NCBI GenBank assembly: GCA_016196125.1
Contig: JACPYG010000015.1
Location: 22,966 to 86,965 of the forward strand
Length of the DNA: 64,000 nt
Direction of reading: 5' to 3'
From: Candidatus Staskawiczbacteria bacterium
GTDB taxonomy: Bacteria; Patescibacteriota; Minisyncoccia; Minisyncoccales; Staskawiczbacteraceae
Each line of letters opens with the position of its first letter. Position 1 is the stretch's first letter. Below, in pieces: positions 410 through 56,306 of this stretch. The translations under genes were made by a program, and so were the position numbers. Under the pieces are notes generated by a model. It was not told the origin of the DNA, searched no databases, and saw nothing but the letters and a program-made list of their open reading frames with translations.

Positions 410-2059
410 TTATGATTTAAATTTTACTCTCCTTAAAAAGGCGGGAATTTCCCATTCTTCTTCTTGCAGAAGTCTTTTATCTTGTTCCAAAGCTTCAGCT
501 TTTTTAATCTCTAAGGCATTTCTTCTTATGGTCTTTTTGATTTTAACATTTACAGGTTCTGCAACAATTAACTTGCCGGATGTCTCTGCCGCAACTTGGT
601 TATTATTCAAGATATGATCAAGACTGATATCAGATAATGTATTTTTAGGCAATTTTTGGGCAATTCTTGCCTGCCTGCCGGCACCTGCCTGCCGGTAGGC
701 ACGGGGTAGGCCTTTGCCCTTAGTTTTATGGCCGAAGGTTTTTTTAACTTTTTGCTCTTTTTTAGCGACAACTTTTGCATCTGCTTTAATGACTTTTTTT
801 ATTGATTCATTTGTTTTTGACGGCCCTGTTATTAGAATAGTCGTTTTAATTTTATTTTTCGCTTTTACATCTTTTGAAATCCCAAAAATTATTTTTGCTT
901 TTGGATTTAATGCGGCGATAGATTTGCTTATTTTTTCCACTTCAATCATATTCAAGCCGGACCCGCCAGAAATATTAAATAAAATCTTCTCTGCTATAAA
1001 ATTGTTGTTTTGATATAAAGGATTGATGAGAATTTTTTCGACTGTTTCTTTAACTTTATCTTTGCCAGAGGCATTAACTGTATTCAAAAAAGCAGAATTT
1101 CCAGAGCCATCTAAGATTGTGCGAAGATCGGCAAAATCAATATTTATCAATCCAGGGTTATAAATTAAATCAATCAAGCTTTCCAAAGATTCTATAAGGC
1201 TTTTATTAACGGTAGAAAATGCTTCTGTTATAGATGTATCATTGCCGATAACCTTAAAAATTCTTTCGTTTGGAATAGTAATTGAAACATTTAAAGAACT
1301 TTTAAGTTCCTTTAAGGATTTTAGGGCTATTTTTGATTTATTTTTACCTTCAAACCTAAATGGAAGCGTAAATATGCCAAGCGTGATTCCGCCGAACAAT
1401 TTTGCGGATTCGGCAAAAACCTTAGTGGCTCCAGAACCCAATCCTCCGCCCAATGAAGCGATTAAAATTACAATATCCTGATCTTTAAAGAGTTCCGTAA
1501 TTTTTTCTTTTTCGGATTCTGCGGCTGTTCTGGCTATTTCCGGATTCACTCCGGTTCCTAAACCGTGAGTAAATTCCTTGCCAAACCAAAAATATTTAAT
1601 GCCTGTTTTCTTTTTTAAAGCTCTAATATCCGTATCTGCAATGACAAATGTCGCTTTATTTACTGTTCTGCCAATTTCAGAAACAATTGACCCGCCGCCT
1701 CCGCCAATTCCAACCACCTTAATTCTGGCGCGAAACAGAGCCTCTGCCGGGAAAGCCGATATATTTTCTTTTTTAATAATTTTGAGTTTTTTTAAAACTG
1801 CTTTCTTTTCCGATTTTATTATAGTTTTTTTCTTTACGTTTTTTTTGGGTTTAACAGGTGGCTTAATTGTTTTTTTAATATGTTTTCCCTTTTTCTTTTT
1901 TGGTTTAACTAAAACTCTCTTCGGAGATTTTACCTTTTTATTTTTTTTATTTGCCCGAATAAATAATTTTGATTTTGCCGAAATTACCGCTTTGCTGTAT
2001 TTAATCGGACGAACTATTGCTTTTTTCTTCATTATTTTTTTCGGCCTCTTGGTTGTCAT
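410..2059 (-). CDS. ftsZ: Cell-division GTPase FtsZ with a Lys-rich N-terminal extension of about 100 aa
   Basis: VVGIGGGGGSIV and GGGLGSGAT tubulin/FtsZ signatures; C-terminal EIPAFLRR anchor peptide. The only Met codons before the core are residues 1 and 10. Confidence 0.95.
   Translation of the reverse strand: MTTKRPKKIMKKKAIVRPIKYSKAVISAKSKLFIRANKKNKKVKSPKRVLVKPKKKKGKHIKKTIKPPVKPKKNVKKKTIIKSEKKAVLKKLKIIKKENISAFPAEALFRARIKVVGIGGGGGSIVSEIGRTVNKATFVIADTDIRALKKKTGIKYFWFGKEFTHGLGTGVNPEIARTAAESEKEKITELFKDQDIVILIASLGGGLGSGATKVFAESAKLFGGITLGIFTLPFRFEGKNKSKIALKSLKELKSSLNVSITIPNERIFKVIGNDTSITEAFSTVNKSLIESLESLIDLIYNPGLINIDFADLRTILDGSGNSAFLNTVNASGKDKVKETVEKILINPLYQNNNFIAEKILFNISGGSGLNMIEVEKISKSIAALNPKAKIIFGISKDVKAKNKIKTTILITGPSKTNESIKKVIKADAKVVAKKEQKVKKTFGHKTKGKGLPRAYRQAGAGRQARIAQKLPKNTLSDISLDHILNNNQVAAETSGKLIVAEPVNVKIKKTIRRNALEIKKAEALEQDKRLLQEEEWEIPAFLRRVKFKS
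668..704. repeat. Two tandem degenerate copies of the CTGCCGGCAG-centred GC palindrome, in frame in the FtsZ C-terminal linker
   Basis: TGCCTGCCTGCCGGCACCTGCCTGCCGGTAGGCA, read on the minus strand as RAYRQAGAGRQA. Confidence 0.8.
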
Positions 2060-6022: not shown

Positions 6023-6226
6023 ATTATTTTTTATTAGACCTGTTTCTTAATAATACATTACTATCTAATTTTATATCTTTTTACAATTTTTTTCAAATTA
6101 ATATCAATAAAAAAAACCTCTTCTGTTATGAAACAGATGAGGTTGATTTTTGTTGTACTTCTTTGCTTTGTTTATTTATTCTTATCCATTTATCGCCTTT
6201 CTTCACCAAAGAACAAAACCGTAATT

Positions 6227-6268
6227 TGGTGGGCCCAGAAGGAATCGGACCTTCTGCCTCTGTCTTAT
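6227..6268 (-). repeat. Orphan copy of the tRNA-Ile 3' half (anticodon position 35 to CCA), 41/42 identical to 6316-6357
   Basis: Direct comparison: TGGTGGGCCCAGAAGGAATCGGACCTTCTGCCTCTGTCTTAT versus ...CTTCTACCTC... in the full gene. Confidence 0.9.
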
Positions 6269-6315
6269 GAATCTGTTTTTACATATTTTTTATTTGAGCA
6301 AAGCTTCCATAACTT

Positions 6316-6390
6316 TGGTGGGCCCAGAAGGAATCGGACCTTCTACCTCTGTCTTATCAGGACAGCGTTCTACCAATGAACTATGGGCCC
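6316..6390 (-). tRNA. tRNA-Ile (anticodon GAU), CCA encoded
   Basis: Manual cloverleaf: GGGCCCA TA GTTC ATTGGTA GAAC G CTGTC CTGATAA GACAG AGGTA GAAGG TCCGATT CCTTC TGGGCCC A CCA. Leader and trailer form a further 12-bp perfect helix (6308-6319 / 6391-6402). Confidence 0.9.
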
Positions 6391-6405: not shown

Positions 6406-6438
6406 CAGGACAGCGTTCTACCAATGAACTATGGGCCC
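6406..6438 (-). repeat. Orphan copy of the tRNA-Ile 5' half (positions 1-34), 33/33 identical to 6358-6390
   Basis: CAGGACAGCGTTCTACCAATGAACTATGGGCCC occurs twice. Identity stops exactly at the first anticodon base. Confidence 0.9.
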
Positions 6439-15498: not shown

Positions 15499-15664
15499 TC
15501 TAACGGGGCAAGTGAAAAAGTTGCTCCCTGTCTACCGACAGGCAGGCGCCTATGAGATGCACTGGCACATAATGACTGCTTCTTTATTCCAATACTATCA
15601 CTGGAAACAGCAAAAATCAATTAGAAAATAATTACCCCACTCCTCAACTAACTATTGTTTTGCG

Positions 15665-24256: not shown

Positions 24257-25252
24257 TTACATCTCCATTAATAATATTTCTAAAGCCAGCTTTGGATTGG
24301 CATTAGTCAAAGAAATTTGCGCATTAATAATTTCCAATAATTTTAAAACTTCTTTAATTTTTGATATGGAATAATTCTTAAAATTATCTGCAGCTTCCGG
24401 AAAAAAATCTTTGGGAGTTAAATTATCCGCTCCTGTTTTTAAAAATAATAAATGCCTCAAATATCTTTGCAAAATTTCTAAAACTCTCTTTGTATTATTG
24501 CCATCCAAATTAATTTTTTTTGTGTATTGAAACTTCAGGGCAAGATTAGAATTAATAACTTTTACCAGTTCTTGCAGTGTTGTTTGCTCTTCTTTCAATT
24601 TATCCGGATTTAAAAATAATTCTATTGCTTGGCCTGGTTTACAGGAACAAAAAGATGCAAGATCATGCGCTATTTTTTCTTGCCTGCCGGCAGGCAGACT
24701 TTCTCCCATTTTTACCAAATTATATTCAATTTCTTTCGGGTCTACAAGATAAAATTTTATTCTTTGACACCTTGAAATTATCGTAGACAATAATGTTTCT
24801 GGATGCGGAGATATTAAAATTAAAATAGTTTTTCCTTTTGGCTCCTCAAGTGTTTTTAAAAGGCAACTCTGCGCCTCAAAATTCATTTTTTCAGCTCCAT
24901 TGACAATGACTGCCTTAAAAGAACCGTAATAAGATTTATAGCTTAAAAAAAGCAAAGCCTCTCTTATTTGTGAAATATCAATTTCCTGTTTATCATTTTT
25001 CAGGTTTACCATTAAAACATCAACATAGCTTTCATTTTCTATGTCTTTGCAATTTCTGCAAATTCCGCATGATTCTTGACCGGGGCTTTTGCCTGCCTCG
25101 GCAGACAAACAATTGATTAACTTTACAAATTCTTTTGCCAAAGTTCTCTTACCTATTTTCTCCTCTCCAGAAAACAAATAAGCATGAGCCAACTGGCCTG
25201 ATTCAAGCTTATTCTTTAAAAAATCCCATTGTTTTTTGTGACCGATTAACAT
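24257..25252 (-). CDS. holB: DNA polymerase III delta' subunit
   Basis: HAYLFSGEEKIGKRTLA, Cys cluster C..C..C and LLKTLEEP motifs. Confidence 0.85.
   Translation of the reverse strand: MLIGHKKQWDFLKNKLESGQLAHAYLFSGEEKIGKRTLAKEFVKLINCLSAEAGKSPGQESCGICRNCKDIENESYVDVLMVNLKNDKQEIDISQIREALLFLSYKSYYGSFKAVIVNGAEKMNFEAQSCLLKTLEEPKGKTILILISPHPETLLSTIISRCQRIKFYLVDPKEIEYNLVKMGESLPAGRQEKIAHDLASFCSCKPGQAIELFLNPDKLKEEQTTLQELVKVINSNLALKFQYTKKINLDGNNTKRVLEILQRYLRHLLFLKTGADNLTPKDFFPEAADNFKNYSISKIKEVLKLLEIINAQISLTNANPKLALEILLMEM
24681..24696. repeat. GC palindrome TGCCTGCCGGCAGGCA in frame in holB (SLPAGRQEK)
   Basis: Perfect 16-bp palindrome inside AT-rich coding sequence. Confidence 0.9.
25090..25107. repeat. 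Degenerate copy TGCCTGCCTCGGCAGACA in holB (LSAEAGKS)
   Basis: Same half-sites with a 2-nt centre insertion and one arm change. Confidence 0.5.
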
Positions 25253-25262
25253 AAATTTAAAA

Positions 25263-26291
25263 TTACTTTTTGCTCATTACTACTTTTTTATATTCGTCTA
25301 AATGTTCTAATACAATACCTGTGCCTTTTATAACGCAAAATAATGGCTCTTCGGCAACAAAACAGGGAACCCCTGTGCTTTGAGCTACTAATTCATTGAT
25401 CTTGGGCAACATAGATCCGCCACCGGCCATAATAATACCCTTATTCATAATATCGGCCGAAAGTTCAGGAGGAGTTTCCGACAATACTTGTTTGGCCGCC
25501 TGAATAATTTCAGCCAACACGTCTGAAACTGCTTCGCAAACTTCATTGTTGGATATTTTAATGTTTCGCGGCAATCCCAAAATCAAATCTCTTCCCTGGA
25601 CTTCCAAATATCTTAACTCTTTTTGCACCAAAGCCGTGCCAACTTTTATTTTTATTTCTTCTGCGGACTGTGTCCCAATCGCTAAGTTGTATTTCTTTTT
25701 AATATATTCTGCAATGGCTATATCTATTTTATCACCGGCTACTCTTACAGAATGAGCTGTCACAATTCCGCCAAGTGAAATTACTGCCACTTCAGACGTA
25801 CCGCCGCCAATATCAATAATCATATGCCCCGAACATGAATTAATGGGAATACCAGCTCCAATAGCAGCCAAAATAGGTTCTTTGGCCACAAAAGCCTGTT
25901 TGGCTCCGGCTGAAAGGGCTGCTTCAATTACCGCCCTCTTCTCTGTGCTGGTGATTCCTGCTGGCACAGATATAACCAATTCTGGCTTAAATAACCTAAA
26001 ATTACCTGCTGTTTTTGTGATGAAATAACGCATCATTGCCTGTGTTACTTTATAATCGGCTATTACGCCATCTTTCAATGGCCTGTATACCTTAATGTCA
26101 GATGGAGTTCGGCCTATCATTTCTTTAGCGCTTTCGCCTACTGCTAAAATCTTGTTATCAGTCAAAGAAACAGCAACCACTGAAGGTTCCTGTAAAACAA
26201 TGCCTTTTCCCTGCACATAAACCAAAGAATTGCAGGTTCCAAGATCAATAGCAATTTTAGCATTAAACATAATCGCTTTGCTTAAATTCAA
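25263..26291 (-). CDS. mreB: Rod-shape protein MreB (paralogue 2)
   Basis: IDLGTCNS and DIGGGTSEVAVISLGG. The ORF-track start is TTG at 26291; an alternative ATG at 26270 gives MFNAKIAIDLGT. Confidence 0.9.
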   Translation of the reverse strand: MNLSKAIMFNAKIAIDLGTCNSLVYVQGKGIVLQEPSVVAVSLTDNKILAVGESAKEMIGRTPSDIKVYRPLKDGVIADYKVTQAMMRYFITKTAGNFRLFKPELVISVPAGITSTEKRAVIEAALSAGAKQAFVAKEPILAAIGAGIPINSCSGHMIIDIGGGTSEVAVISLGGIVTAHSVRVAGDKIDIAIAEYIKKKYNLAIGTQSAEEIKIKVGTALVQKELRYLEVQGRDLILGLPRNIKISNNEVCEAVSDVLAEIIQAAKQVLSETPPELSADIMNKGIIMAGGGSMLPKINELVAQSTGVPCFVAEEPLFCVIKGTGIVLEHLDEYKKVVMSKK

Positions 26292-26403
26292 AATTTAAAA
26301 ATCAAAAATTAAAATTTAGGTATCAAAAATTTATTTTTATAAATTTTTGATTAATTTTAAACTTTAAATTGTCATTTTGCATTTTGAAATTTGCATTTTA
26401 AAT

Positions 26404-31063: not shown

Positions 31064-31151
31064 AATTTTAGAATCTAGAATTTAGAAAGTAGAATCTAGA
31101 ACACGGAACGTACGCTTCTATTTTCTATTTTCTAACTTCTATTTTCTCGCT
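31064..31151. repeat. Heptad-periodic inverted repeat filling the rpsD-rpoA spacer
   Basis: (TAGAATC)x5-like arm 31068-31101, loop CACGGAACGTACG, (TTTCTAT)x5-like arm 31115-31147; about 26/32 complementary. Confidence 0.75.
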
Positions 31152-32604: not shown

Positions 32605-32695
32605 AACTTCATGAAACATACAACATGGAACATGGAACAAAACTACGACGAAACGTTTTTTTGTTATGTGTTCTATGTTATGTGTTATGTGATTT
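32605..32695. repeat. Heptad-periodic hairpin element (CATGRAA arm / GTTATGT arm), copy 1, filling the rpmJ-rpsM spacer
   Basis: The arm at 32610-32643 is 30/34 identical and the arm at 32661-32695 is 33/35 identical to the copy at 49647-49727. Confidence 0.85.
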
Positions 32696-32810: not shown

Positions 32811-32838
32811 GATTATGAGATAAACAAATAGAACACGA

Positions 32839-32904
32839 ACCCCGCCCCAAAAGCTATTAAACATTACATTAGCATAGAGGGCGGGGTAAGTTCGCTTCGC
32901 TCGC
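32839..32904. repeat. GC hairpin element ACCCCGCCC...GGGCGGGG(T/C)AAG(T/C)TCGC, copy 1, abutting the infA stop
   Basis: About 80 percent identical over roughly 68 nt to 50302-50370, which abuts the tuf stop. Confidence 0.85.
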
Positions 32905-36928: not shown

Positions 36929-37687
36929 TTATGCAACAGATTTAACAATTTTTAGAAATTTTTCTGCGTAAAGCGAAGCCCCGCCGACTAAAAGCCCGTT
37001 AGCCCCGGTATTTTTAATATAGAGAGCCGAGTTGTCTGAATCTACGCTGCCGCCATAAAGAACTTTCATATTATCGGCTATTTTTCTATTATACAATTTT
37101 AAAACAACTCTTCGTATAAATAAAATAGAACTCATCGTTTCGTCTTGTGAACAATTATTTCCGGACCCAATTGCCCAAATTGGCTCATAAGCAATAACAA
37201 TATTTTTTACTTCTTTTACGATAATGCCTTTTAAATCTTCTGTAATTTGCCTTTCTAAAACTTCAACTTTTTTGCCTGTCTTTTTTTCCTCATTAGTTTC
37301 ACCTATGCACAAAATCGGTTTTAATTTTTCGTGCAAGCATTCTTTTATTTTTTTATTGATAACGGTGTCTGTTTCGTTTAAATATTTTCTGGACTCTGAA
37401 TGGCCTATTATAACATATTTTACTTTTGAATCACGAAGCTGTGAAGCTGAAACCTCTCCGGTAAACGCGCCTTTTCCCCTTACCTGCCTGCCGGCAGGCA
37501 GGTAAAAAACATTCTGGGCGCCCAAAGTCAATCCTTCCAATAAGTTCAAATAAACAAAAGGCGGGCATATAACAACTTCAACCTTCTTTTCATTTTTTAA
37601 CCCTTTTTTTATTGCTTCAAAAAGAGCTTTGGCTTCTTTTTGATTGGCAGGATTCATTTTCCAGTTGGCAACAATAAGATTTTTCAT
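36929..37687 (-). CDS. tpiA: Triosephosphate isomerase
   Basis: ANWKMN, GAFTGEVS, IIGHSESR, AYEPIWAIGSG, GGASL. Confidence 0.95.
   Translation of the reverse strand: MKNLIVANWKMNPANQKEAKALFEAIKKGLKNEKKVEVVICPPFVYLNLLEGLTLGAQNVFYLPAGRQVRGKGAFTGEVSASQLRDSKVKYVIIGHSESRKYLNETDTVINKKIKECLHEKLKPILCIGETNEEKKTGKKVEVLERQITEDLKGIIVKEVKNIVIAYEPIWAIGSGNNCSQDETMSSILFIRRVVLKLYNRKIADNMKVLYGGSVDSDNSALYIKNTGANGLLVGGASLYAEKFLKIVKSVA
37482..37503. repeat. Perfect 22-bp palindrome ACCTGCCTGCCGGCAGGCAGGT in frame in tpiA (YLPAGRQV)
   Basis: Read directly from the sequence; the two halves are exact reverse complements. Confidence 0.95.
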
Positions 37688-42494: not shown

Positions 42495-42610
42495 GCGGAA
42501 ATAAGGATATTTTTCAATTCGGGCTCGGGTCGCGAGAGCTTCCCGCTGTGCGGGAGCTCCCGACATAGGCCGTGGGTTTGGCGGGCGTTGAAAAATATCC
42601 TTATTTCCGC
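42495..42610. repeat. MITE-like hairpin element, 116-bp form with a nested 43-nt palindrome (rpsH-rplF spacer)
   Basis: 23-bp perfect arms GCGGAAATAAGGATATTTTTCAA / TTGAAAAATATCCTTATTTCCGC. Core TTCGGGCT[43 nt]GCCGTGGGTTTGGCGGGCG. Confidence 0.9.
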
Positions 42611-42619
42611 TTAATACTA

Positions 42620-43009: not shown

Positions 43010-43100
43010 TTGTGTGAGTATTAAGTATTGAGTATTTTGTATTAGGTATTTGACGTTTCGCATACTCAATACTTCATACTTTATGCTTAATGCTTCATAA
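43010..43100. repeat. Heptad-periodic inverted repeat filling the rpsN-rpsH spacer
   Basis: (NAGTATT)x5 arm 43014-43050, loop TGACGTTTCG, (NATACTT)x5 arm 43061-43098, with a 12-bp perfect pairing AGTATTGAGTAT/ATACTCAATACT. Confidence 0.8.
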
Positions 43101-43851: not shown

Positions 43852-43870
43852 ATTTTATAATCTCTTTTTT

Positions 43871-43944
43871 GCGGAAATAAGGATATTTTTCAATTCGGGC
43901 TGGCCGTGGGTTTGGCGGGCGTTGAAAAATATCCTTATTTCCGC
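43871..43944. repeat. MITE-like hairpin element, minimal 74-bp form (rplX-rplE spacer)
   Basis: Same 23-bp arms as 42495-42610; core TTCGGGCTGGCCGTGGGTTTGGCGGGCG without any nested palindrome. Confidence 0.9.
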
Positions 43945-43954
43945 ATAGATAACT

Positions 43955-46694: not shown

Positions 46695-47030
46695 TTATTT
46701 CTTTATTGCTGTCTTTGCCGCTTCCGTTTTTACCGCTTCACCATCTCCTTTTTTCTGTTCTATTTCTCTTTGCATTTTTCCTCCGTGTCTTACGAATTTT
46801 GTTGTGGGGGAAAATTCTCCAAGCTTGTGACCCACCATATCTTCTGAAATATTAACCGGCACAAACTCTTTTCCGTTATGCACTCCAAAAATATAGCCTA
46901 CCATTTCCGGAGAAATTGTGGAATATCTTGCCCATGTTTTAATAATTAATTTTTCGTCCTTTCTGAGTTTTAATATCTTATCTATTAATTTTGGGTCAAC
47001 ATAAGGACCTTTTTTAAGACTTCTTGGCAT
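46695..47030 (-). CDS. rpsS: 30S ribosomal protein S19
   Basis: [15 protein letters not shown] ... [13 protein letters not shown]. Confidence 0.95.
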
Positions 47031-47034
47031 ATTT

Positions 47035-47060
47035 TTTACTTTTTCCTCCTTTGAATTATA
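47035..47060. repeat. 26-bp perfect direct repeat, copy 1 (upstream of rpsS; duplicates the rplB 3' end)
   Basis: TTTACTTTTTCCTCCTTTGAATTATA is identical at 47121-47146. Confidence 0.95.
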
Positions 47061-47120
47061 TTATTAATTTTGTTATTCATATAATTCTGCACTCGGTCAA
47101 AGTAAATAATTAACAAATTA

Positions 47121-47146
47121 TTTACTTTTTCCTCCTTTGAATTATA
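47121..47146. repeat. 26-bp perfect direct repeat, copy 2 (last 8 codons plus stop of rplB)
   Basis: Encodes FIIQRRKK* on the minus strand. Confidence 0.95.
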
Positions 47147-47970
47147 AACTTATTTGTCCACTTTTTTGTATTTCTTGTTTTTACCCCCAAGGCTGGTTTT
47201 CCCCATGGAGTTTTTGGATGTTTTAAACCAATTGGCTGTCTGCCCTCTCCTCCTCCATGCGGATGGTCAACTGGATTCATAGCCGAACCCCTAACATGAG
47301 GCCTTCTCCCTTTTAATCTTGATTTACCTGCCTTACCAACCCTATAATATCTGTTTTCTGGATTTGAAACCATTCCTATGGAAGCAAAGCACTCGCTTAT
47401 AAATTTTCTTACTTCGGTTGACGGCATTTTCAGGTTAACGTAATTTCCCTCCTGAGCTAAAACCTGAGCCGAAGATCCTGCAGATCTTACTAACTTTCCT
47501 CCTTTGCCAGGCTCTAATTCAATATTATAAACCATTGTTCCAACCGTTATATTTTTTAACTTTACTCTATTTCCTGGTTTTAAAGGAGCTTTCTCGGAAA
47601 ATATAATCTCATCTCCAACTTTCAGGTCTTGTGGCGCAATAATATATTGCCTATATTTGCTATGCCTGCCGGCAGGCATGCCTAAATATTCTATCAGAGC
47701 GATAAAGGCCGTTCTGTTTGGATCATATTCCAAAGCAACAACTCGGGCTGGCGAATCTATTCTTGTTTGTGAAAATTCAATCATTCTATAAAGTTTTTTT
47801 ACTCCGCCTCCTTTGTGTCTTACCGTAATCCTGCCAGAAGACTTCGATCTGCCAACATGTCTTTTTATATTTGCCAAAAGACTCTTTTCTGATTTATCTT
47901 TTGAAAGCAATGAAAAATCGATTCCTGTCATTCCTCTTCTGCCTGACGTTGTTGGTTTATAATGTTTCAT
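47122..47970 (-). CDS. rplB: 50S ribosomal protein L2
   Basis: EYDPNRTAFIAL ... GSAMNPVDHPHGGGEGR. Confidence 0.95.
   Translation of the reverse strand: MKHYKPTTSGRRGMTGIDFSLLSKDKSEKSLLANIKRHVGRSKSSGRITVRHKGGGVKKLYRMIEFSQTRIDSPARVVALEYDPNRTAFIALIEYLGMPAGRHSKYRQYIIAPQDLKVGDEIIFSEKAPLKPGNRVKLKNITVGTMVYNIELEPGKGGKLVRSAGSSAQVLAQEGNYVNLKMPSTEVRKFISECFASIGMVSNPENRYYRVGKAGKSRLKGRRPHVRGSAMNPVDHPHGGGEGRQPIGLKHPKTPWGKPALGVKTRNTKKWTNKFIIQRRKK
47662..47679. repeat. Perfect 18-bp palindrome ATGCCTGCCGGCAGGCAT in frame in rplB (GMPAGRHS)
   Basis: Read directly from the sequence. Confidence 0.95.
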
Positions 47971-49058: not shown

Positions 49059-49649
49059 TTATCCTCTAATCTCAAGCAAAGTTCCCCTATGTCCCGGTAT
49101 TGCTCCTTTTACTGCCAACAAGTTATTTTCTTTATCAATTTTGGCTATTTTTAAATTTTTTACAGACACTCTTTCATAGCCCATTCGACCTGGCATTCTT
49201 CTTCCTTTAATAACTCTCTGCGGAAAACGGCTTCCCGTAGATCCTATTGTTCTTTGTTCGTGTTTTACTCCATGAGTGGCATTTCTTCCGGAAAAACCGT
49301 GCCTTTTTACTCCACCCTGAAATCCTTTTCCTTTTGAAATTCCCGAAACTTTTATCTTGTCGCCCTCATTAAATATTGAAACATTTATTTCATCACCGGT
49401 ATTATATTTTGAAATATCTATGTCTCCTTTAAATTCTTTAACAAACTTATATTCTTTCCCTTTCATAGATTTTTTAATTTTATTTTTTTTCTCTAACCTT
49501 TTCATGCCAACCTGAATAGATTCATATCCATCTCTTTTTTTCTGTAAAACATAACAAGGGCCTCCCAAAATTAAAGTAACCGGTATTACCTTGCCATCAT
49601 TATCAAATATTTGCGTCATTCCTATTTTTTGTCCTAAAATAAACTTCAT
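49059..49649 (-). CDS. rplC: 50S ribosomal protein L3
   Basis: MKFILGQKIGMTQIFD. The start codon lies inside the first heptad of the repeat; the ORF-track MFYVSCF is repeat read-through. Confidence 0.95.
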   Translation of the reverse strand: MKFILGQKIGMTQIFDNDGKVIPVTLILGGPCYVLQKKRDGYESIQVGMKRLEKKNKIKKSMKGKEYKFVKEFKGDIDISKYNTGDEINVSIFNEGDKIKVSGISKGKGFQGGVKRHGFSGRNATHGVKHEQRTIGSTGSRFPQRVIKGRRMPGRMGYERVSVKNLKIAKIDKENNLLAVKGAIPGHRGTLLEIRG

Positions 49650-49727
49650 GAAACATGAAACATAAAACATGGAACAAAACGAAGATATATTATTGTTATG
49701 TGTTCTATGTTGTGTGTTATGTGATTA
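49647..49727. repeat. Heptad-periodic hairpin element (CATGRAA / GTTATGT), copy 2, in the rpsJ-rplC spacer
   Basis: CATGAAACATGAAACATAAAACATGGAACAAAAC ... TTGTTATGTGTTCTATGTTGTGTGTTATGTGATTA. Confidence 0.85.
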
Positions 49728-49738
49728 ATAATGAAAAA

Positions 49739-49789
49739 CTGGGCGATTGCCCAGCTTCGGCAATGTTGTTACCCCCGCAATGGCGGGGG
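49739..49789. repeat. Two short GC hairpins in the rpsJ-rplC spacer
   Basis: CTGGGC GATT GCCCAG (49739-49754) and CCCCCGC AATG GCGGGGG (49772-49789). Confidence 0.8.
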
Positions 49790-49828
49790 AAGTTAACAAT
49801 TGAACGATTTTTAATATATTTGCTTGTA

Positions 49829-50146: not shown

Positions 50147-50208
50147 ATTCTTTCCTTCTTCTAGAAGAATATTTGCTTTAATACCCGTTTCTTTAGATGG
50201 CTTTTTTA

Positions 50209-50230
50209 CTGCCTGCCTGCCGGCAGGCAT
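50209..50230. repeat. GC palindrome CTGCCTGCCTGCCGGCAGGCAT in the tuf-rpsJ leader (or the rpsJ N-extension)
   Basis: The core TGCCTGCCGGCAGGCA at 50214-50229 is a perfect palindrome. Confidence 0.9.
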
Positions 50231-50301
50231 TGCTTTCTTTCGAATTGCTGGTTTCTTGACTGGCATCTTATGATTTTATGAACGAAGTGAATAATATCAT
50301 G

Positions 50302-50370
50302 ACCCCGCCCTCCAAGCTTTTGATTTTATTCATTTAGCATAGAGGGCGGGGCAAGCTCGCCATCGCTCAC
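50302..50370. repeat. GC hairpin element ACCCCGCCC...GGGCGGGG, copy 2, abutting the tuf stop
   Basis: See 32839-32904. Confidence 0.85.
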
Positions 50371-55391: not shown

Positions 55392-55517
55392 TATTTAATA
55401 CTAACACGTATTGACCCCGTTAGAAATAGCCAATCTTAAAAATACTTAAATAACGTTATTATGGACGTGATTTTTAACGGAGTTGAAAAAAATAAAAGAA
55501 AGTGTTAGAATGCACCA

Positions 55518-55615
55518 AAGTGGAAATAATAATATTTTTCAACGTCCGCCCTGCCTGCCGGCAGGCAGGCAAACCCACGGCCAGCCCGAATTGAAAAATA
55601 TTATTATTTCCACTT
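55518..55615. repeat. MITE-like hairpin element with the nested 20-bp palindrome (upstream of rpmB)
   Basis: 25-bp perfect arms AAGTGGAAATAATAATATTTTTCAA / TTGAAAAATATTATTATTTCCACTT. Core CGTCCGCC CCTGCCTGCCGGCAGGCAGG CAAACCCACGGCCAGCCCGAA. Confidence 0.9.
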
Positions 55616-56206: not shown

Positions 56207-56306
56207 GGTCAGAAAATAAAAATATTTTTCAACGCCCGCCCTGCCTGCCGGCAGGCAGGCAAACCCACGACCAGCCCGAATTGAAAAATATTTTTATTTT
56301 CTGACC
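56207..56306. repeat. MITE-like hairpin element with the nested 20-bp palindrome (yraN-comM spacer)
   Basis: 26-bp perfect arms GGTCAGAAAATAAAAATATTTTTCAA / TTGAAAAATATTTTTATTTTCTGACC. Core identical to 55543-55590 except for 2 nt. Confidence 0.9.

Follow-up and report, generated by a model that had tools for sequence, protein, structure and literature searches.

In a 64,000-nucleotide (nt) stretch of a Candidatus Staskawiczbacteria contig (JACPYG010000015.1, positions 22,966 to 86,965 of the forward strand; hereafter the window), two hairpin elements of nearly the same sequence, with arms made of seven-nucleotide units, stand directly before the ribosomal protein (r-protein) genes rpsM, encoding S13, and rplC, encoding L3. 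We find that both belong to a dispersed family of foldback repeats of Parcubacteria-type Patescibacteria, and we regard the existence of this family and the rules of its positioning as practically certain. Its copies are found before many unrelated genes, are oriented with the gene that follows, contain or closely precede the start codon of that gene in the phase of their heptads, and are present at a junction in some genomes and absent from the same junction in close relatives.

Results

Two copies in the ribosomal protein cluster

The genes of the r-protein cluster of the window, from fusA to rplQ, are on the minus strand, and the mRNA sense is the reverse complement of the letters quoted in a preliminary description of this DNA, which had reported two look-alike hairpin copies before rpsM and rplC. 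Both are present where it placed them, on the minus strand, with boundaries that we correct slightly (Table 1), and they are the only two in the window by arm search and by covariance model. The 33-nt 5′ arm ATCACATAACACAYAACATAGAACACATAACAA has exactly two occurrences in the 64 kb against none expected (100 shuffles, up to three mismatches), and the family covariance model R1 gives the copies 102 and 99 bits; the only other matches above 19 bits come from the opposite strand of these two loci. Between the copies, arm identity is 92% and the loops differ, as had been described, and the reported 7-nt period of the arms is evident from a self-similarity scan of the window, in which 79 scan windows with at least 20 self-matches in 28 were found at lag 7 compared with 0–20 at each of the other lags from 3 to 12.

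In copy 1, the 5′ arm contains a single G and has UAA or UAG every 7 nt, so that stop codons occur in all three frames, and the 3′ arm has an AUG every 7 nt, the last of its own being 8 nt upstream of the rpsM AUG. Copy 2 makes up the gene-proximal (promoter-distal) half of the 179-nt rpsJ-to-rplC spacer, and its final 8 nt (AUGAAGUU) are at the same time the initial 8 nt of rplC. The element does supply several upstream ATGs, and the rplC start codon does lie within it, both as previously noticed. The possibility that copy 1 was derived from the rplC locus, as it carries AUGAAGUU, was considered and rejected, given that copies elsewhere (L133, L228 and L168) also finish with CAUGAAGUU. The window as a whole has a G+C content of 35% and no L30 gene, and is 99.99% identical to a contig of the Candidatus Staskawiczbacteria metagenome-assembled genome GCA_016178195.1.

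Table 1. Positions of the two family copies, their parts and adjoining codons, and of three further heptad hairpins in the window.
Feature	Position	Strand	Details
Copy 1, heptad foldback element	32605..32693	minus	89 nt, the whole rpmJ-to-rpsM spacer; 102.1 bits with covariance model R1
Copy 1, 5′ arm	32661..32693	minus	mRNA AU-CACAUAA-CACAUAA-CAUAGAA-CACAUAA-CAA
Copy 1, apical region	32644..32660	minus	AAAAACGUUUCGUCGUA; variable part of the family
Copy 1, 3′ arm	32605..32643	minus	mRNA GUUUUG-UUCCAUG-UUCCAUG-UUGUAUG-UUUCAUG-AAGUU
rpsM (S13) start codon	32602..32604	minus	protein of 129 amino acids, N-terminus MPRIAGV as in homologues
rpmJ (L36) stop codon	32694..32696	minus	UAA; the next base is the first base of the copy 1 5′ arm
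Copy 2, heptad foldback element	49642..49727	minus	99.1 bits with covariance model R1
rplC (L3) start codon	49647..49649	minus	last AUG of the copy 2 3′ arm, inside the last heptad; 196 amino acids from this AUG per NCBI and gene calls
Heptad hairpin of unrelated sequence, rpsD-to-rpoA spacer	31064..31151	minus	AGAAAAU.../...AUUCUAG; fills the spacer; lag-7 scan; absent in L128, L130 and L131
Heptad hairpin of unrelated sequence, rpsN-to-rpsH spacer	43010..43100	minus	GAAGCAU.../...AAUACUC; fills the spacer; lag-7 scan
Heptad hairpin of unrelated sequence, murA-to-mreB spacer	26271..26403	minus	fills the spacer; lag-7 scan; in relatives, the two genes overlap or have 4 nt between them

A dispersed family tied to gene starts

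A metagenome scan with an exact 20-mer of the 5′ arm returned 100 stretches with 86 unique instances, and with the covariance model R1 77 unique places were located, some of them lacking the 20-mer; these counts are from metagenome contigs that possibly include related strains, deduplication having considered no more than the element with 40 nt of flank, and the gene calls are open frames with Pfam matches. Viral contigs gave no match to the family. The consensus consists of (A)WCACATAACACATAACATAGAACACATAAC, a run of A, ACG..CGT, TTTTG, three to five units of TTYYATG and a terminal CATGA, and on the mRNA strand the 5′ arm reads as about four units of CA[C/U]A[U/G]AA and the 3′ arm as units of GUU[Y][Y]AUG. 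Most instances are complete hairpins. No contig has more than three copies, and all multi-copy contigs but one have them on the same strand. Among 39 copies, mean pairwise identity is 88% in the arms, 87% in the 3′ arm alone, which was not fixed by the search, 52% in the loop, and 30% in the next 7 nt of flank; arms are thus conserved whereas loops are free. The number of 3′ arm units varies from three to five among copies, and other repeats have been inserted into two of them (L173 and L212).

The gene on the 3′ side is on the same strand as the element at 46 places and on the opposite strand at 3 (p = 7e-11; 77 places). On the 5′ side, where a frame test allowed classification of 36 places, the gene is on the same strand at 27 and on the opposite strand at 9, of which at least one (L150) is misclassified. 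In most copies the element fills the stop-to-start spacer between two co-directional genes, within r-protein operons and others. The tie to gene starts made in the preliminary description therefore holds far beyond the window, but the special link to rpsM and rplC, or to r-protein genes in general, does not, since at least 27 different gene families, mostly with housekeeping roles, follow the element. Those identified by Pfam include L4, L9, L14, L24, L29, S13, RpoB, NusG, GreA, SecY, Adk, GroES, DnaJ, HtrA, SSB, RNR-beta, HisRS, LysRS, TrmD, FtsE, PilC, pilins, glutaredoxin and SWIB, r-proteins accounting for 7 of 27; L2 and L18 were added by eye.

The start codon of the downstream gene keeps a fixed relation to the heptads. 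In the 34 cases with a clear downstream open reading frame (ORF), the start codon coincides with the last AUG of the element in 19 (offset 0) and lies 7 nt beyond it in 8; a further 3, listed at offset 14, have a terminal AUG that has decayed to AUA or AUU and start 7 nt from that heptad, bringing the total within the pattern to 30. For L14, L9, SSB, GroES, DnaJ, S13 and L29, the Pfam profile begins at residues 1–4, and because these are small single-domain proteins, the starts assigned to them are confirmed by it. The base following the AUG is A (giving AUGA) in 16 of the 19 genes at offset 0 and in 3 of 11 at offset 7 (Fisher p = 0.0045), and the latter genes, mostly not beginning with AUGA, retain an extra AUGA of the element one heptad upstream. 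At the other end of the element, the upstream ORF terminates at a UAA inside the 5′ arm in 7 of 19 cases. The in-frame AUGs of the element mislead gene callers, so that L3, S13 and pilin genes have been called with false N-terminal extensions in several genomes.

A cluster of three family copies was seen within 1.5 kb of one stretch (L201, 1356–2894), one before each of three consecutive prepilin genes, and there the last heptads of the element encode the first residues (MFHE or MFHG) of the cleaved prepilin leader peptides.

The absence of a visible Shine-Dalgarno (SD) sequence before rpsM and rplC had been pointed out. None is seen at either gene, but this is not special, because most genes of the window have no SD at normal spacing and have A-rich leaders, and the anti-SD motif is frequently missing in Parcubacteria (PMC9297842).

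Presence, absence and turnover in relatives

Three relatives whose L3 proteins are 85–87% identical to that of the window (L003, L006 and L007) keep a conserved motif of the rpsJ-rplC spacer, followed by 15–25 nt before ATGAAATTT, and have no heptad element. Likewise, three relatives with S13 92–94% identical (L128, L129 and L130) have an rpmJ-rpsM spacer of only 15–17 nt, and short rpsD-rpoA and murA-mreB junctions as well. A seventh (L131, S13 91%) has in its rpmJ-rpsM spacer a different heptad hairpin (UUAGCGU / CUAAACC), a second copy of which lies between alaS and the next gene. The element of the window does occur in the rpmJ-rpsM spacer of L206, with arms 95% identical to those of copy 1, while S13 there is only 77% identical in protein sequence and 50% at third codon positions. 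This pattern of presence and absence among close relatives indicates that the elements are recent and turn over fast. At filled sites, the native short spacer of 15–22 nt is replaced rather than split, and no common target-site duplication flanks the two window copies.

Two outcomes had been set against the preliminary description by its own author, namely copies at random genomic positions and absence from all relatives. Positions are not random with respect to gene starts, yet the closest relatives, with L3 or S13 85–94% identical, lack the element at both sites, which together with its occurrence before so many unrelated gene families removes the proposed special connection with r-proteins.

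Two side observations concern these junctions. The two UUAGCGU / CUAAACC copies of L131 (8079–8172 and 9930–10000) share the terminus ..CCCTAAATAT(N)ATGCCAA; in one copy the ATGCCAA is the genuine rpsM start, in the other it precedes the ATG of a different gene, and the rpsM start may have been copied along with the hairpin. The upstream half of the rpsJ-rplC spacer of the window (49734–49798, minus strand), kept in L003, L006 and L007, consists of TTGTTAAC, a variable hairpin, GTAACAACATTGCC and GGGCAATCGCCCAG, followed by TTTTT; the hairpin resembles a terminator and, standing between rpsJ and rplC, may serve as an attenuator or as a control site for an r-protein of the L4 type.

Folding and strand asymmetry

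Both strands of both window copies fold into a hairpin, and the plus (antisense) strand is the more stable. Copy 1 folds at −33.2 kcal/mol on the plus strand (z −5.8) and −25.5 on the minus, or sense, strand (z −3.1), and copy 2 at −22.0 and −15.5, respectively, with z between −2.8 and −5.8 overall, better than shuffled sequence. Two other members behave alike, with antisense and sense values of −41.2 and −22.8 in L028 and −36.6 and −17.2 in L064. The G-T pairs attributed to the plus strand were also recovered, 23 of them against 5 A-C over four hairpins of the r-protein cluster.

In the family helix, 84.6% of cells are paired; as the search pattern had kept the 5′ arm constant, this figure does not speak to covariation. 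Watson-Crick cells number 528 and sense A-C cells, equivalent to antisense G-U, 94, and there is not a single sense G-U; among 29 family copies that were classified, 25 have the more stable fold on the antisense strand. Other heptad families divide 20 to 13, with no consistent preference. In the 3′ arm, G is nearly confined to the AUGs, with 5 Gs in 855 other positions. Leaders without the element have 49% A and 12% G, and at four-fold degenerate sites C exceeds G on the coding strand. Since each G replaced by A in the sense strand of a palindrome leaves A-C in the sense and G-U in the antisense RNA, the antisense-only G-U pairs follow from the G depletion of the sense strand, and an antisense function is not required to account for them.

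Other heptad hairpins and repeats

Three further window hairpins of about 90–130 nt have the same architecture with unrelated sequences, each filling one stop-to-start spacer (Table 1). In 0.91 Mb of Patescibacteria contigs, 79 regions have two heptad-periodic arms within 70 nt, and 42 of these belong to other sequence families. A scan of a genome collection with the degenerate pattern (CAYABAA)x4 matched at least 120 stretches; among the matches listed, most are plain tandem heptamer arrays from many phyla, and six are Patescibacteria hairpins of the same layout (Moraniibacteria, Falkowbacteria and Parcubacteria); the source genome of the window is not among the matches listed. Among these hairpins, the last heptad contains the start codon of an RNase H gene and that of a TagA-like gene, the HypA and ParA starts are 6–9 nt past the last AUG of the array, and one hairpin (L047) faces an RsmI-like gene in the opposite orientation.

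The heptads of the 5′ arm (CATAGAA / CACATAA / CACATAG) were also seen as long pure tandem arrays without a complementary arm (L211 10000–10206, L171 100–250, L137, L146 and L218). Such pure arrays of the family's own heptads suggest that the arms expand and contract like microsatellites.

The preliminary description had drawn attention to a parallel order of a translation-factor gene, a GC hairpin, a small r-protein gene and the heptad element at the two loci. We consider this parallel a coincidence, explained by several independent repeat families that occupy the spacers of the cluster, namely the GC hairpin, a GCGGAAATAAGG inverted-repeat element and CCTGCCTGCCGGCAGGCAGG palindromes, with relatives carrying other families at the same places. 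The GC-rich hairpin, CTTACCCCGCCCTCTATGCTAA ... GGGGCGGGGT, is on the minus strand of the window at 32811–32904 (infA-rpmJ) and 50267–50370 (tuf-rpsJ) and also in the infA-rpmJ spacer of L130 (9765–9870), where L128 has a different small hairpin and L131 an unrelated spacer.

A third family, an inverted repeat of about 90 nt (GCGGAAATAAGGATATTTTTCAAC ... GTTGAAAAATATCCTTATTTCCGC), is found in the window at 43852–43954, 42518–42619, 55515–55609 and 56214–56299, as well as in L003 (5106–5195) and L007 (9367–9455). It occupies the rplX-rplE and rpsH-rplF spacers of the window, the latter with a nested GC-rich insertion, and the rplC-rplD spacer in two relatives; being in different spacers across relatives, it behaves like a mobile element. 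The GC-rich palindrome CCTGCCTGCCGGCAGGCAGG has up to 10 copies in the window (666–707, 15527–15550, 24679–24702, 37483–37506, 50208–50231, 55550–55573 and 56240–56263 among them), one copy being within a long N-terminal extension of the rpsJ open frame, and a related palindrome is the one inserted in the 3′ arm of the heptad element of L173.

Two other duplications were noticed. Beside a tRNA gene (6319–6390), the segment 6225–6438 contains partial duplications of 44 nt at 98% identity (6225–6268 and 6314–6357) and 33 nt at 100% (6358–6390 and 6406–6438). At 47028–47155, a direct repeat spaced by 86 nt contains GGAGG (AAAGGAGGAAAAAGTAAA), a rare clear motif here, once 16 nt before the rpsS start and once inside the end of rplB.

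Discussion

A possible cassette for translation restart

How these elements spread and what, if anything, their RNA does can only be considered at lower confidence. We propose that the family is a foldback cassette, multiplied by copy-and-paste, that takes the place of the stop-to-start spacer and lets SD-independent initiation or reinitiation continue, a combined statement which we see as evenly poised between right and wrong. Let us assume that copies spread by recombination or template switching at microhomologies provided by the stop codon and the AUG(A), or perhaps with the help of a transposase; slippage of heptads would then alter the number of units, and replication slippage would also favour the 7-nt unit as such, as proposed in the paper on TAACTGA repeats (PMC4679880). 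The sense RNA would be a G-depleted hairpin, weakened by its A-C mismatches, and the base of its stem would set the preceding stop codon beside the start codon. The 5′ arm would offer UAA or UAG to ribosomes in all three frames, and the 3′ arm a lattice of AUGs closing with AUGA; the 7-nt unit would bring UAA and AUG alike into each frame, and the start AUG would be presented at the stem base. Where SD pairing is not used, an element of this kind would keep SD-independent initiation, or termination followed by reinitiation, in working order and would be tolerated, perhaps even favoured. The translational part of this scenario, which is argued from sequence, is a tentative suggestion that we hold to be less likely than not.

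Several observations weigh against it. There are real copies at operon starts, following a terminator, a promoter-like site or a tRNA, with no co-directional gene upstream, and with about 9 of the 36 upstream flanks not co-directional, the juxtaposition of stop and start codons is not the whole story. Copy 1 itself has an offset of 8, neither 0 nor 7. Some AUGs of the 3′ arm lie out of frame a short way upstream of the real start, an arrangement that would seem costly. Lastly, neither a target-site duplication nor a transposase was found, in contig fragments of which one cluster, the pilin operon of L201, was inspected. We had considered a RAYT-like gene between the clustered copies there, but the genes in question are the prepilins.

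Alternative explanations

The most serious alternative, one we nevertheless hold to be somewhat unlikely, is a purely selfish or neutral repeat, the RNA of which has no role. Slippage would make the 7-nt units, template switching between arms would build quasi-palindromes, scattering would proceed as for MITEs or REPINs, and the observed orientations and positions would simply be those in which an insertion into a tightly packed genome is not lethal. Heptanucleotide repeats are the commonest class of long simple sequence repeats in prokaryotes, with polymerase slippage as the proposed cause (Mrazek 2007, as cited in PMC4679880), and much of what we observed is in accord with such an origin: the variable unit number of the 3′ arm, the pure tandem arrays of the same heptads (L211, L171 and L137) and heptamer arrays in many phyla, the fast turnover among close relatives, the insertion of other repeats into copies, and the same architecture realized by many unrelated sequence families. 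However, slippage alone cannot explain why a single conserved sequence of 90 nt recurs at dozens of unrelated loci, in hosts between which the third codon positions of S13 are saturated. In addition, the start codon in phase with the heptads, the retained terminal AUGA and the confinement of G to the AUGs resemble a constraint on mRNA sequence, and the enrichment before r-protein and other highly expressed genes also speaks against pure selfishness.

At the other end of the range is the idea that the element is a portable SD-independent cassette for the start or restart of translation that has spread under selection to highly expressed gene starts of Patescibacteria, whose ribosomes often have no anti-SD motif, bringing along its own stops for every frame and its in-phase AUGs, its stem either juxtaposing stop and start codons or docking on the platform of the 30S subunit in place of the SD helix. 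We judge this stronger version, which adds selection for spread to the scenario above, to be rather unlikely.

One might instead suppose that it is the opposite strand that works, either as an antisense RNA hairpin or as a single-stranded DNA hairpin for mobility, as in REP/RAYT systems, IS200/IS605 ends and integron attC sites, the sense hairpin being a by-product. The much better antisense folding of both window copies, L028 and L064, the A-C bias of the family helix and the predominance of stronger antisense strands among family copies would all be expected then. Nonetheless, the asymmetry is accounted for by the loss of G to A in the sense strand, which shares the low G content of every leader here; four-fold sites have more C than G on the coding strand; the other heptad families show no consistent strand preference; and G-T pairs stabilize DNA little. 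A scan of both strands of the element also detected neither a promoter-like nor a terminator-like site, and no Y1 transposase was seen beside the clustered copies, L201 being a pilin gene cluster. We therefore consider a function of the opposite strand improbable.

Still less credible, and in our estimate very improbable, is a mobile promoter or leader carrying a transcription start for short-leader or leaderless mRNAs. The same upstream sequence before non-homologous genes in fixed orientation is the very definition of putative mobile promoters (PMC3488235), and some copies are at operon starts after terminators or a tRNA. Against this, the promoter and terminator scan detected no sigma-70-like −35/−10 pair in the element on either strand, the best −10-like hexamers being wrongly spaced by inspection; most copies are inside operons directly after a stop codon; and in L172 the element comes after a good promoter-like site and would thus be transcribed as part of the leader.

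An operon-specific r-protein feedback leader, comparable to the S4-binding leader of the alpha operon or the L4-dependent S10 leader, is effectively refuted by the distribution of the element: the position before rpsM is indeed that of the E. coli alpha-operon leader, and copy 1 matches Alpha_RBS (RF00140) weakly at 14.8 bits, but this is far under the gathering threshold of 38, the element is absent at the rplC site of L003, L006 and L007 and at the rpsM site of L128, L129 and L130, and it also precedes the genes for SecY, GroES, SSB, pilins, tRNA synthetases and others. No other Rfam family was matched at gathering score, nor down to E = 10, and there was no leader match at copy 2.

Two further classifications were rejected. 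An intrinsic terminator, that is, a GC-rich stem with a run of U, does not apply, as no terminator-like site is present on either strand. Guide arrays of the TIGR or CRISPR type, with units of about 36 nt, were considered with TIGR in mind as rich in the candidate phyla radiation and poorly conserved; here the units are 7 nt without spacers, they lie between essential genes, and there is no Tas-like neighbour.

Comparison with known systems

Hairpins between cistrons couple translation in r-protein operons and RNA phages. The present element resembles them in bridging two successive cistrons from stop to start, and it too would be opened by an upstream ribosome. Those hairpins, however, are locus-specific and conserved, whereas here the hairpin is a portable repeat, some copies of which have no upstream cistron.

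Besides REP, REPIN and MITE sequences, the Correia, RUP and ERIC elements are further dispersed palindromic repeats of this type. The likeness to REP, REPIN and MITE (for REPINs, see PMC8049555) lies in multi-copy intergenic hairpins of about 100 nt, present or absent in relatives, with conserved arms and a free middle. Unlike them, the heptad family has arms of tandem 7-nt units, is tied to start codons and brings stop and start codons of its own; neither a target-site duplication nor a matching RAYT or transposase was found here. REPs, moreover, are usually located after genes and in both orientations. Putative mobile promoters (PMC3488235) share the placement of one upstream sequence in fixed orientation before non-homologous genes, but the heptad elements contain no promoter consensus and are mostly internal to operons, from stop to start.

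The closest systems described so far are, in our opinion, the STRR hairpins of filamentous cyanobacteria and the TAACTGA repeats. STRR (short tandemly repeated repetitive) sequences, for instance those at hupS-hupL, are tandem 7-bp units in inverted arrays that can fold, lie there between co-transcribed genes and vary among close relatives, with roles in transcript stability or translational coupling proposed (PMC2670836). The host here is Patescibacteria and the heptads are CACAUAA / GUUCCAU, and a single consensus of about 90 nt recurs at numerous loci in numerous hosts; that the elements strictly point the way the gene does, that the start codon keeps step with the array or falls within it, and that the stop-to-start spacer is replaced are rules which the text consulted does not mention for STRR.

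The TAACTGA repeats of marine Beggiatoaceae, cyanobacteria and Bacteroidetes (MacGregor 2015, PMC4679880) are similar in forming forward heptamer arrays a few nt before start codons that have no SD. They too are found before r-protein genes (L3, S4 and S1) inside operons, their unit carries stop codons, and horizontal spread is suspected (PMC4679880). Those arrays, in contrast, are direct repeats of a single heptamer, with one inverted case in 170 sets, while here two arrays pair with each other into a hairpin whose apical part is conserved, and it is AUG and not stop codons that the 3′ array carries. We found no prior description of such elements in Patescibacteria or the candidate phyla radiation in the literature, our coverage of which is incomplete.

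Implications

Irrespective of the details of the scenario, the family bears on the open question of how start codons are chosen in bacteria without SD pairing, and how long essential operons are translated in proportion in uncultured, genome-reduced Patescibacteria. It offers for this question a concrete, abundant and rule-bound object, a 90-nt hairpin that, in dozens of essential genes, either reaches the AUG or stops one heptad short of it. Its gain and loss between close relatives provide natural pairs of the same junction with and without the element. Finally, the family links the STRR hairpins and the TAACTGA repeats to a third phylum, and suggests that start-proximal heptamer arrays may form a general class.

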